64,000 bases of DNA from Escherichia phage TH09. The notes under the pieces are model-generated. The model had not been told where the DNA came from and searched no databases. It saw only the letters and a program-made list of their open reading frames with translations. Where the stretch lies: the sequence record MT446387.1; one strand, 5' to 3'. Of the stretch, positions 33,592-36,773 are shown one piece after another (the stretch's first letter is position 1; every line of letters begins with the position of its first letter). The translations under genes were made by a program, and so were the position numbers.

Positions 33592-33774
33592 ATGGAATTG
33601 GTAAAGGTAGTTTTTATGGGGTGGTTTAAGAATGAAAGCATGTTTATTAAAGAAACCACAATGATGAAAGATGACGTTCAATGGGCTACTACTCAATATG
33701 CTGAAGTTAATAAAGCATTAGTTAAAGCTTTCATTGATGACAAGAAAGTATGTGAAGTAGATTGCCGAGGATAA
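33592..33774 (+). CDS. dmd: Dmd, antitoxin against host RnlA/LsoA
   Basis: 60 aa; recognised as T4 Dmd. Confidence 0.85.
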   Translation: MELVKVVFMGWFKNESMFIKETTMMKDDVQWATTQYAEVNKALVKAFIDDKKVCEVDCRG

Positions 33775-33775
33775 T

Positions 33776-34033
33776 ATGCATATTGTTTTATTTAAACCTA
33801 CTCCGTATAACGTCAGGAAAAATACGCAATTCAAAGCGCTTATTGCGGATACATGGGAATTGGTGTTAGATATTCCAGCAGAAGAAAGTCCTCCATTTGG
33901 TCGAGTGGAATTTATTAAGTTTGTTGTACGTCCTACGAAGAGGCAGATTCGTCAGTGTAAAAGGCATTTTCGTAAGATCGTTAAGCTAGAGAAACAGTTT
34001 GTAACATGTGATTATGCAGAAGTTTTAAAATAA
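33776..34033 (+). CDS. hypothetical protein
   Basis: 85 aa. Confidence 0.5.
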   Translation: MHIVLFKPTPYNVRKNTQFKALIADTWELVLDIPAEESPPFGRVEFIKFVVRPTKRQIRQCKRHFRKIVKLEKQFVTCDYAEVLK

Positions 34034-34093
34034 CTATTTACTTTTGTTGGAAATTGAGATACTATATAAACATAAACTACTGAGGAGATTATC

Positions 34094-34387
34094 ATGAAAA
34101 AATTTATTTTTGCTACAATTTTTACTTTGGCTTCTTGTGCTGCTCAGCCTGCTATGGCAGGATATGATAAAGATTTGTGTGAATGGTCTATGACTGCAGA
34201 TCAGACTGAAGTTGAAACTCAAATTGAAGCGGATATTATGAATATCGTTGAGCGCGATCGTCCTGAAATGAAAGCTGAAGTACAAAAACAGCTTAAGTCT
34301 GGTGGTGTAATGCAGTATAATTACGTTCTGTATTGTGATAAAAACTTCAATAATAAAAATATCGTAACCGAAATCACAGGCGAATAA
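34094..34387 (+). CDS. sp: spackle periplasmic protein
   Basis: 97 aa with signal peptide; size and position match T4 sp. Confidence 0.7.
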   Translation: MKKFIFATIFTLASCAAQPAMAGYDKDLCEWSMTADQTEVETQIEADIMNIVERDRPEMKAEVQKQLKSGGVMQYNYVLYCDKNFNNKNIVTEITGE

Positions 34388-34388
34388 T

Positions 34389-35021
34389 ATGATTTATTAT
34401 ATGCACAAAAATCCACCGTTTAAATACGGTAAATTTCCTGATGCACAATGTTATAATATAACGCCTGATGAAAATAACCGTGGATATCTTATTGGCACAA
34501 TTTTTGTAATTGTTAAAGATAACGAAATCGTTGCCTGGGCAGATTTTAAAGGTACAACATATGATGTTAATCCGGTGCCTTTCACATATTACAATTTAAT
34601 GGATTTGGCATACGATTATAATTGGTTTAATCATGACACTTTGGCTCATATTGAAGGTGTAGGATTTGATATTTCATATTCGGAATACACTTTAAGCCCT
34701 ATGAGTCGAGCCCATAAAGAACCTGAATATTTTTCATTTAGGAAACGTGTAAACTTTAAACGCAGCACAGAGTATGTCGGTGGAATATTTGTTAAAGATA
34801 ATCGAATTACTCGCATTATTTATCCTTTGGGCTGTGGTCAAAAAGATATTGATGTTAATTTAGACTTTACTGAAAACATCATTAATCATATTGCTTCTGT
34901 GTATTTTGGTATCGATCACAAAATTGTAATATGTGGATATGAATTACCGTTTGAAGAACAGCCTAAAGTAAAAGTTTCTATTGACGATCAAATTTTTAAT
35001 GCTTTTATGAATAAAGGTTAA
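34389..35021 (+). CDS. hypothetical protein
   Basis: 210 aa; C-terminal SIDDQIFNAFMNKG shared with next ORF. Confidence 0.55.
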   Translation: MIYYMHKNPPFKYGKFPDAQCYNITPDENNRGYLIGTIFVIVKDNEIVAWADFKGTTYDVNPVPFTYYNLMDLAYDYNWFNHDTLAHIEGVGFDISYSEYTLSPMSRAHKEPEYFSFRKRVNFKRSTEYVGGIFVKDNRITRIIYPLGCGQKDIDVNLDFTENIINHIASVYFGIDHKIVICGYELPFEEQPKVKVSIDDQIFNAFMNKG

Positions 35022-35025
35022 TATG
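34977..35025 (+). repeat. 49-bp direct repeat, copy A
   Basis: 46/49 identical to 35335-35383; covers last 14 codons, stop, SD and next ATG. Confidence 0.8.
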
Positions 35026-35379
35026 TATAGTTCTGAATTTTCATATTTAAAAATGGAAAAAATTTCATACGATTTTATAGATGAAAAGGTTTATTACAGT
35101 TTCCATGAACCGCGTTTTAATAGTGAGGTTGGGTTTATTGTAGTAAAAGACAATTTCATTTTAAAGATATATTCGGCATTAAAGGATTTTCACTATGAAA
35201 ATATTAACCTAAAATTTGATAAAGAAAACGTTCGTAATTGTGCAGTAACAATTACAGGAAATAAAGGTACGTGTGTTATGCTATCTGATGAAATTAATGA
35301 TTTGCTAAATGATGCAGAAAATATTACTGCGCCATCTATTGATGACCAAATTTTTAATGCTTTTATGAATAGAGGTTAA
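35023..35379 (+). CDS. hypothetical protein
   Basis: 118 aa; C-terminal SIDDQIFNAFMNRG. Confidence 0.55.
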   Translation: MYSSEFSYLKMEKISYDFIDEKVYYSFHEPRFNSEVGFIVVKDNFILKIYSALKDFHYENINLKFDKENVRNCAVTITGNKGTCVMLSDEINDLLNDAENITAPSIDDQIFNAFMNRG

Positions 35380-35383
35380 TATG
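35335..35383 (+). repeat. 49-bp direct repeat, copy B
   Basis: See copy A. Confidence 0.8.
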
Positions 35384-35545
35384 AAAACATATAAAGAATT
35401 TATCAAAGAAGATATGGTCGCTGGAGATTCAGGTGGTAGTCCTGAAAATATCTCTACTGGAACAACGTCAGGCGCTGTAGTAAATAAAGGTCCTGAACAG
35501 ATTCCTAAAAAGAAAAAAGAGGAATCTAAAGAAAAAGAAGAGTAA
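35381..35545 (+). CDS. small protein with capsid-targeting-like N-terminus
   Basis: 54-codon ORF below track cutoff; N-terminus MKTYKEFIKE resembles the T4 internal-protein targeting sequence; lysine-rich acidic tail. Confidence 0.4.
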   Translation: MKTYKEFIKEDMVAGDSGGSPENISTGTTSGAVVNKGPEQIPKKKKEESKEKEE

Positions 35546-35547
35546 AA

Positions 35548-36576
35548 ATGTCATCAATACCTTGGATTGATAATGAGTTTGCATACCGTGCATTAGCTCA
35601 TTTACCTAAATTCACACAAGTAAATAATAGTTCAACTTTTAAATTACGGTTTAGATGTCCTGTTTGTGGAGATTCAAAAACCGACCAGAATAAAGCTCGT
35701 GGATGGTATTATGGTGATAATAATGAAGGAAATATTCATTGTTATAACTGTAACTATCATGCACCAATCGGAATATATTTAAAGGAGTTTGAACCTGATT
35801 TATATCGTGAGTATATCTTTGAAATAAGAAAAGAAAAAGGTAAAAGTCGTCCAGTAGAAAAACCTAAAGAACTTCCTAAACAACCCGAAAAGAAAATAAT
35901 TAAATCTCTTCCGTCATGTGTTAGATTAGATAAACTGGCGGAAGACCATCCAATTATAAAATATGTAAAAGCTCGTTGTATTCCAAAGGATAAATGGAAA
36001 TATCTTTGGTTTACAACTGAATGGCCTAAATTAGTTAATAGCATAGCACCAGGAACATACAAAAAGGAAATTTCTGAGCCTCGTCTTGTTATTCCAATTT
36101 ATAATGCTAATGGAAAAGCTGAGTCTTTTCAAGGACGTGCATTAAAGAAAGATGCTCCTCAAAAATATATCACCATTAAAGCTTATCCTGAGGCAACAAA
36201 AATTTACGGTGTTGAACGAGTTAAAGATGGTGATGTATATGTTCTAGAAGGACCTATAGATTCACTTTTTATTGAAAATGGTATAGCTATTACGGGTGGT
36301 CAATTAGACCTAGAAGTTGTTCCATTTAAAGATAGACGAGTGTGGGTTTTAGATAATGAACCTCGTCACCCTGACACTATCAAACGAATGACTAAATTAG
36401 TTGATGCAGGAGAAAGGGTTATGTTTTGGGATAAATCTCCCTGGAAATCAAAAGATGTCAATGATATGATTAGAAAGGAAGGTGCAACCCCTGAACAAAT
36501 TATGAAATATATGAAAAATAATATTGCCCAGGGGTTGATGGCTAAAATGCGGCTATCTAAATATGCTAAGATTTAA
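35548..36576 (+). CDS. 61: DNA primase gp61
   Basis: 342 aa; zinc ribbon CPVCGDS...CYNC; recognised as T4 gp61. Confidence 0.95.
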   Translation: MSSIPWIDNEFAYRALAHLPKFTQVNNSSTFKLRFRCPVCGDSKTDQNKARGWYYGDNNEGNIHCYNCNYHAPIGIYLKEFEPDLYREYIFEIRKEKGKSRPVEKPKELPKQPEKKIIKSLPSCVRLDKLAEDHPIIKYVKARCIPKDKWKYLWFTTEWPKLVNSIAPGTYKKEISEPRLVIPIYNANGKAESFQGRALKKDAPQKYITIKAYPEATKIYGVERVKDGDVYVLEGPIDSLFIENGIAITGGQLDLEVVPFKDRRVWVLDNEPRHPDTIKRMTKLVDAGERVMFWDKSPWKSKDVNDMIRKEGATPEQIMKYMKNNIAQGLMAKMRLSKYAKI

Positions 36577-36773
36577 ATTAACCCAACTAAAGCAAATGCT
36601 AAATCTACGAATGTATCAAGAGTAACTACTGGAATATTAATACCATGTGCAATTGCAACAGGTGATAAAATAAAGTTCCAGAGTAAAATTCCTACCATAG
36701 CAGAAATAGTAAAAGCTATACGTTTTTTATTACCTTTTATGGCATTAACAAGTGCCATTAATTTTTGTACCAT
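36573..36773 (-). CDS. small membrane protein, antisense to surrounding operons
   Basis: 66 aa hydrophobic; GGAGGA SD 4 nt before the ATG on the - strand. Confidence 0.5.
   Translation of the reverse strand: MVQKLMALVNAIKGNKKRIAFTISAMVGILLWNFILSPVAIAHGINIPVVTLDTFVDLAFALVGLI

Follow-up and report, generated by a model that had tools for sequence, protein, structure and literature searches.

The window analysed here is a stretch of 64,000 nucleotides from Escherichia phage TH09 (MT446387.1). On its + strand, an ORF of 54 codons occupies positions 35381-35545, and its translation, checked in the ORF list and in the sequence, is exactly the one quoted by an earlier reading of the letters alone (hereafter the sequence-only reading). 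The 54-codon gene claimed there is real: the translation was confirmed, a GAGG ribosome-binding site precedes the start codon, and the ORF lies just 5' of gene 61. The same reading called the ORF untracked, which is wrong, as it is T4 gene 61.1 (NP_049649), annotated in T4 and in hundreds of relatives. The product differs from T4 gp61.1 at three residues, and profile searches matched it over residues 1-54 to phrog_1823 (the short form of the family; E=2.4e-33) and over residues 8-53 to phrog_2086 (the long form; E=2.3e-16). The nearest complete genome, that of Escherichia phage JLBYU22, is 99.9% identical across the 61.1 region, which is also 95-99% identical to that of ~490 other Tequatrovirus genomes. 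Relatives in this genus annotate the ORF mostly as "hypothetical protein", and several name gp61.1 explicitly.

The gene is tightly packed between its neighbours. The upstream gene ends in a stop codon that overlaps the 61.1 start (TAATATG), and the stop codon of 61.1 is followed after two bases by the ATG of gene 61 at 35548; as the sequence of this junction indicates, the ribosome-binding region of gene 61 sits within the last codons of 61.1. The ORF was placed by the sequence-only reading in an early operon far from the internal-protein loci, and it does lie within the early unit uvsX-40-41-...-61, at a distance from those loci. A spurious ORF was considered and rejected, with 45-70% identity kept across genera and 51 family clusters at 50% identity; on sequence grounds, this conservation excludes the possibility that 61.1 is not a real gene. 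Gene 61.1 has been listed among the function-unassigned ORFs conserved across T4 and five distant relatives (Nolan et al. 2006, PMC1524935). A search for the function of gp61.1 found nothing in the searchable literature, where gp61.1 is mentioned in gene lists only. The gene is thus already known, and its nature is undescribed in that literature.

Table 1 Coordinates of gene 61.1, its parts and neighbouring features in the 64,000-nucleotide window
Feature	Position	Strand	Remarks
dmd	33592-33774	+	counter-defence/exclusion run
61.4	33776-34033	+	counter-defence/exclusion run
sp/spackle	34094-34387	+	counter-defence/exclusion run
49-nt direct repeat, copy 2	35335..35383	+	spans the end of the upstream gene and the 61.1 ATG
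GAGG ribosome-binding site	35372..35375	+	5 bases 5' of the 61.1 ATG; read from the sequence
gene 61.1	35381..35545	+	54 codons + stop; product MKTYKEFIKEDMVAGDSGGSPENISTGTTSGAVVNKGPEQIPKKKKEESKEKEE; full-length phrog_1823 match
61.1 codons 1-10, MKTYKEFIKE, capsid-targeting-like leader	35381..35410	+	predicted prohead protease cut after Glu10 (I8-K9-E10)
61.1 codons 11-38, DMVAGDSGGSPENISTGTTSGAVVNKGP, conserved core	35411..35494	+	homologous to gp23 residues 66-93 (N-fist of mature gp23)
61.1 codons 39-54, EQIPKKKKEESKEKEE, lysine-rich mixed-charge tail	35495..35542	+	K/R-rich tail family-wide
gene 61, DNA primase	35548..36576	+	ORF list; annotations in T4-like relatives

Between 61.2 and 61.1 lies an extra gene of 118 aa (35023-35379, + strand) that is absent from T4. 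This gene shares 33% identity (E=2e-9) with the C-terminal half of 61.2/AdfA, of which it is a paralogue, and matches Pfam AdfA at E=1.1e-7. On either side of it stand 49-nt direct repeats, at 34977-35025 (copy 1) and 35335-35383, which a repeat search found to be 94% identical and 358 nt apart and which duplicate the end of the upstream gene together with the next start codon. Judged by this arrangement, the 118-aa gene looks like a cassette inserted by recombination at a gene junction. Between helicase gene 41 and the 61.1 side, positions 33592-35021 (+ strand) hold a run of counter-defence or exclusion genes (Table 1). Gene 61.2 gave a full-length match to Pfam AdfA (anti-DarT factor A; E=2.4e-137), and 61.4 may be the ToxIN inhibitor TifA. 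On the far side of primase gene 61, between it and the dCTPase gene 56, a hydrophobic ORF of 66 aa on the - strand (36573-36773) shares four bases with the end of gene 61; relatives list it as hypothetical, and the T4 annotation of this interval lacks it.

The claim that 61.1 begins with a decapeptide resembling the capsid-targeting sequence of T4 internal proteins was assessed against five internal-protein-type genes of JLBYU22, a comparison of the kind that the sequence-only reading had suggested. These leaders read MKTYQEFIAE, MKTYKEFIAE (Ip10), MKTYQEFITE (Ip4), MKTYAEFLTE and MKSYTQFLNE. The 61.1 leader is identical to that of Ip10 at nine of ten residues; the coding DNA of the two matches at roughly 25 of 30 bases, and the DNA upstream is unrelated. 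Mutagenesis by Mullaney and Black, reviewed in PMC9026906, indicates that leader residues 4 and 7 are the main determinants of capsid targeting, and residues 8 and 10 those of processing. All four reported determinants are present in 61.1, as Y4 (F in T4), F7, I8 and E10. Among the 721 Met-started ORFs of at least 35 aa in the window, a loose leader pattern was found in two and an MKTY...I-x-E leader in 61.1 alone. Since the determinants are kept and the leader start is unique in the window, the observation of a targeting-like leader is confirmed and is not due to chance. The (I/L)-x-E ending claimed for it is likewise real, as the leader ends in I-K-E and a hydrophobic-x-Glu motif is conserved family-wide. 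The residue following the predicted cut is Asp in 61.1, and Ala, Ser or Thr in gp23, gp24 and the internal proteins examined.

Leader-like starts were also seen elsewhere. Across 50 kb of RB49, including the loci equivalent to the internal-protein loci, no ORF besides 61.1 had a leader of this type, except for gp24 and one small ORF of unannotated function that matches the loose pattern. The uvsW.1 product of JLBYU22 (L005 15153, + strand) starts MLLGFKQFLYE and resembles the leader of RB49 gp61.1, MIGFKQFVEE, and the last 38 residues of Alt begin MTGFNQFLVEE (JLBYU22, L005 24149, - strand). Alt is reportedly also cut by gp21 at its C-terminus. From the UvsW.1 and Alt starts, it follows that F-x-Q-F-hydrophobic-x-E recurs in T4-type proteins beyond the classical internal proteins.

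The similarity of 61.1 to structural proteins continues past the leader into the major capsid protein, gp23. When compared by BLASTP with gp23 of JLBYU22, 61.1 residues 2-38 aligned with gp23 57-93 at 41% identity (37 residues, E=8e-8). A search of 177,635 distinct PDB sequences with a profile built from 17 family members had T4 gp23 as its sole match (E=4e-5), and the long-form profile found T4 gp23 in the PDB at E=3e-11, with the match widened to gp23 residues 35-100. Comparison by hhalign with a gp23 profile built from the gp23 N-termini of seven genera gave a probability of 97.2% for the short form (E=4.7e-11, residues 2-42 against gp23 57-97) and 98.3% for the long form (E=1.3e-14, gp23 36-102). 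The hhalign alignment pairs 61.1 Y4/F7/I8/E10 with gp23 F59/F62/L63/E65, and seven columns that are invariant in the 61.1 family carry the same residue, also invariant, in gp23 (E65, G70, D71, I79, G82, G86 and G92). A chance match through low complexity was rejected, gp23 being the only significant match among the PDB sequences and the invariant columns coinciding. Searches of Pfam with each of the 17 family members returned no match at E up to 1, including none to Gp23 (PF07068). Only gp23 residues 57-97 were matched, so that gp61.1 is not a gp23 protein with HK97-fold shell domains; because of this restricted match and the lack of any Pfam hit, the database names "major capsid protein" and "major capsid domain-containing protein" are misleading.

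In gp23, residues 1-65 are removed by the prohead protease, which cuts after L-T-E65, and the unusual 25-residue stretch that follows (residues 66-90) is known as the N-fist. Residues 66-105 are disordered inside the unexpanded head, where they probably contact the scaffold, and on expansion they pass to the outer surface, link capsomers and help form the Soc site (PMC9546572, PMC9958956). By alignment, gp61.1 reproduces, as a protein of its own, the part of gp23 that surrounds the maturation cut site. As Y4, F7, I8 and E10 fall on gp23 F59, F62, L63 and E65, the internal-protein leader resembles the last nine residues of the gp23 propeptide, a link between targeting leader and gp23 that becomes statistically visible through gp61.1 because its homology runs past the cut site. 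Within the same genomes, the 61.1 core and the gp23 N-fist of seven genera had a mean identity of 0.52, compared with 0.516 when permuted (p=0.38), and there was no sign of gene conversion or lineage-specific co-evolution between the two in these genera.

The distribution of the family was assessed by tblastn with the 61.1 core, which returned 1,479 phage records (about 1,500 T4-like genomes) with hosts including Escherichia, Klebsiella, Aeromonas, Acinetobacter, Enterobacter, Vibrio, Yersinia and Morganella. The corresponding gp23 segment returned 2,502 records, 379 of them from Synechococcus phages, and no cyanophage group was among the top ten organism names for 61.1. Gene 61.1 is close to universal in Straboviridae and apparently absent from their cyanophage relatives. 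Members of the family, grouped into 51 clusters at 50% identity following a profile search of 1.84 billion representative proteins, come in two forms. Short forms of 50-60 aa with a short leader are found in T-even phages, RB49 and Aeromonas phage Asfd_1, and long forms (phrog_2086) of 130-165 aa in CC31, TG1, Slopekvirus KP1, Acinetobacter phage AM101 and KVP40-like phages. The long forms carry a helical N-domain of ~100 residues, in place of which the T-even short form has its ten-residue leader; otherwise they have the same cut-site motif, core, lysine-rich tail and place near the primase gene as the short form. AlphaFold modelled the N-domain with a pLDDT of 87-98 and the core and tail with ~50, consistent with disorder of the latter. 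A search of the PDB found no fold relatives of the N-domain. Foldseek matched the long-form model to parts of three uncharacterised viral proteins, A0A411BBR2 (672 aa), A0A1B1IT15 (913 aa) and A0A7S5R3P1 (387 aa), with up to 41% identity over 150 columns; the other domains of these longer proteins could reveal a functional partner.

The putative cut site is a constant of the family. A Glu lies 1-3 residues ahead of the (A/S/G)GD core in 51/51 clusters, and hydrophobic-x-Glu precedes the core in 37/51 clusters in simple register, or, by our reading, in ~90% when alternative registers are allowed. The motif is kept both behind a 10-residue leader and behind a 100-residue domain. Position is similarly stable: 61.1 adjoins gene 61 in T4, CC31, TG1, AM101 and KVP40-like phages, lies one or two small genes from the primase gene in RB49 and KP1, and in the genera examined stays beside or near the primase gene while the surrounding genes change completely. 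In Slopekvirus KP1 (L013), 61.1 is separated from the primase gene by a DksA-like zinc-finger gene and is immediately preceded by a DNA methyltransferase gene.

Several variants of the C-terminal region were seen. Some T6-type genomes (P0002, P0004) carry a 62-aa variant in which the tail shifts frame after KKKK (…KKKKRNLKKKKSKNVINTLD) and the ORF extends beyond the start of gene 61; this variant apparently arose through slippage in the A-rich tract, and the tail of 61.1 seems to tolerate change provided that it stays lysine-rich. In the metagenomic members P0033, P0053 and P0056, a second leader-like motif (…NFKQFVEGLE…, …DFKQFVESLE…) follows the lysine-rich tail in the same ORF, and the C-terminal extensions of ~100 residues gave no PHROG match. 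The position of the motif gives the impression of a fusion, downstream of 61.1, with a protein that bears a targeting-type leader.

Evidence on expression came from the window and from published T4 data. On the + strand between position 1 and 35381 there is no late promoter TATAAATA, only sites with one mismatch; a TGCTT-containing sequence just 5' of 61.1 was rejected as a late promoter because it is too close. At least one internal-protein gene of JLBYU22 has TATAAATA directly upstream. In a T4 time course, the 61.1 transcript was classed as early, as were those of ipII and ipIII, whose proteins appear late. The gp61.1 protein was not detected in a time-resolved whole-cell proteome of T4, which is weak evidence because gp61.1 gives only one good tryptic peptide. 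In T4, this peptide is EDMVAGDSGGNPENISIGTTSGAVVNK (EDMVAGD...VVNK) when uncleaved, and the predicted gp21-cleaved form, DMVAGD...VVNK, is one Glu shorter; for the phage of the window, the predicted cleaved tryptic peptide is DMVAGDSGGSPENISTGTTSGAVVNK, of 2451.6 Da. No report of gp61.1 in virions or proheads was found in the searchable literature, and the T4 virion mass-spectrometry study that was checked does not mention gp61.1. The predicted mature peptide of this phage has a mass of 4.57 kDa, a pI of 5.0 and, by charge calculation, a net charge of -2, and the gp61.1 products of CC31, KP1 and KVP40-like phages are basic (pI 9.8-10.3). The prohead has capsomer openings of 14-17 Å that are thought to release scaffold fragments (PMC9546572), and a product of 4.6 kDa could be small enough to exit by this route. 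As for dispensability, CRISPRi-ART knockdown in T4 scored 61.1 as "Not Fit" (log2 fold change -0.84), and HIDEN-SEQ transposon insertion hit 13/13 TA sites of the T4 gene and classed it as non-essential. Gene 61.1 is therefore dispensable in both T4 screens on the laboratory E. coli strains used. The main text of the HIDEN-SEQ study reports no conditional phenotype for it.

These features set gp61.1 apart from each of the proteins that it resembles. It has in common with the T4 internal proteins (IPI, IPII, IPIII and relatives) the ten-residue MKTY(K/Q)EFIxE leader, with aromatic residues at 4 and 7 and I-x-E at 8-10 in both. Unlike their genes, 61.1 lies outside the variable internal-protein loci and has no late promoter; its mature part would be a disordered, acidic peptide of 44 residues, whereas the internal proteins are folded and basic, and it is conserved across Straboviridae, whereas they are hypervariable. 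With gp23 it has in common the homologous region (57-97, or 36-102 in long forms), the invariant Gly, Asp and Ile residues and a Glu aligned to the cut site, but it has nothing of the remainder of gp23, the entire HK97-fold shell domain included, adds a lysine-rich tail and is encoded in the early replication region. The vertex protein gp24 offers a further parallel, having a short N-terminal propeptide that ends in hydrophobic-x-Glu as in 61.1 and that gp21 removes after residue 10 in T4. The propeptide of RB49 gp24 is MTHIFTELLRE, and we take the ten-residue T4 counterpart to be MAKINELLRE. A full capsid-fold protein follows this propeptide in gp24, and in 61.1 the leader is followed by an N-fist-like peptide only. 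Taken together, these comparisons identify 61.1 as a member of the gp61.1 family and, as far as homology can tell, as a stand-alone module of the maturation site and N-fist of the capsid protein.

The build of 61.1 (a leader like the end of the gp23 propeptide, a hydrophobic-x-Glu site, a 25-residue copy of the N-fist and a lysine-rich tail) suggests a path through the prohead. The leader would bring gp61.1 into the scaffolding core, as happens with gp23, gp24 and the internal proteins; the prohead protease gp21 would cleave it after Glu10; and a disordered, N-fist-like peptide of ~44 residues would be freed inside the maturing head. That peptide might then stay with the DNA, exit via the capsomer pores or dock at the place where N-fists dock. 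Entry into the prohead core and the cut after Glu10 are, in our judgement, quite possible, if somewhat short of probable. What the sequences show is the homology, the conservation of the cut-site motif, the match in targeting and processing determinants and the conservation across Straboviridae; from these we infer prohead entry, the cut and a later role of the peptide. The core is predicted to be disordered on its own, and gp23 66-105, inside the unexpanded head, is disordered too (PMC9546572). The early-operon position is no bar to this path, because head gene 40 lies in the same uvsX-40-41-...-61 unit and the ipII and ipIII transcripts are early, and dispensability fits it as well, since an accessory head component is expected to be non-essential. 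Against it stand the lack of a late promoter, the early T4 transcript, the failure to detect gp61.1 in the T4 proteome or to find it reported from virions or proheads, the Asp after the cut, the pI of 5.0, a size that could allow escape from the prohead, the place kept beside the primase gene and the lack of co-variation with gp23. A more specific proposal is that 61.1 is a micro-protein derived from gp23 that acts in trans on head maturation, its N-fist copy docking at gp23 N-fist surfaces, whether as a cytoplasmic protein or once the prohead protease has freed it. Conceivable effects of such docking are a tuning of lattice expansion, the occupation of sites near the gp24 or portal vertices, or a restraint on off-pathway assembly. 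This elaboration we consider unlikely; were it true, 61.1 would be an evolutionary link, with the internal-protein leader descending from the end of the gp23 propeptide.

Other explanations dispense with entry into the head. The early transcription of 61.1 without a late promoter, together with its strong and specific homology to gp23, would suit a protein that is made early, never enters the head and imitates the N-terminal segment of gp23 in the cytoplasm so as to occupy its partner. If that partner is a host defence sensor or protease directed at nascent gp23, 61.1 would be a decoy; if it is the surface of unassembled gp23 at which the N-fist docks, 61.1 would restrain off-pathway assembly. 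The T-even gene lies within a counter-defence cluster (dmd, sp, 61.2/AdfA) and is dispensable on laboratory E. coli, both of which are in keeping with such a role. However, near-universal presence in Straboviridae, at a place beside the primase gene that is held while counter-defence neighbours turn over, would be unusual for an accessory decoy, and a decoy has no evident need for the hydrophobic-x-Glu that is nonetheless kept in ~90% of lineages. The HIDEN-SEQ main text also reports no conditional phenotype, and we know of no sensor of the gp23 N-terminal segment. We regard a cytoplasmic mimic as a lesser possibility, though one to be taken seriously. The place kept by 61.1 beside the primase gene across most genera examined could instead reflect a link to replication, with gp61.1 working with primase or helicase, for example via the helical N-domain of the long form and the lysine-rich tail. 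The gene lies between or next to genes 41 and 61 in T4, RB49, CC31, TG1, AM101, KP1, Asfd_1 and KVP40-like phages, and its tail is K/R-rich. On this account, the gp23-like segment would be an evolutionary relic or a flexible linker, and the T-even short form a remnant, retained in part for the translation start region of gene 61 that its 3' end contains, as seen in the window. Yet it is the capsid-like core that is best conserved, and several lineages have lost the N-domain and retained the core, which makes a replication accessory doubtful.

The sequence-only reading had proposed that the processed peptide, if functional, would be packaged and injected with the DNA, the way in which known anti-restriction internal proteins act; IPI*, for instance, blocks a host nuclease. 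All that speaks for such a role is the targeting-type leader with its I-x-E motif, and the interpretation accordingly divides: the resemblance to a targeting leader and the I-x-E motif stand, strengthened by the homology to the gp23 cut site, and the anti-restriction part is unsupported. The family profiles match only gp23 in the PDB, with no homology or structural similarity of 61.1 to any known nuclease inhibitor in that search, and the conserved core is a capsid-protein paralogue that mimics gp23, lacks an IPI*-like fold and is predicted to be disordered. Being acidic and very small, the product may not be retained in the head. Moreover, 61.1 is conserved in phages from Vibrio to Acinetobacter hosts, whereas known internal proteins vary greatly between close relatives, and neither of the two genome-wide T4 screens gave a phenotype. 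We therefore consider an injected anti-restriction peptide highly improbable.

Gene 61.1 is among the few function-unassigned T4 genes conserved in nearly all T4-like phages of enterobacteria, Vibrio, Aeromonas and Acinetobacter, and the copy of the capsid maturation site and N-fist that it carries provides a first concrete, testable hypothesis for it. The homology also suggests an origin for the capsid-targeting leader, namely the end of the gp23 propeptide. Foreign proteins are widely packaged into T4 heads by means of this leader. The one-to-one mapping of its key residues to gp23 F59, F62, L63 and E65 suggests that leader and gp23 dock at a common site on the scaffold or protease, a clue that could help in designing improved packaging tags. 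Should the peptide work in head maturation, or as a decoy, 61.1 would be a small regulator of a new kind, one that derives from a structural protein of a virus.
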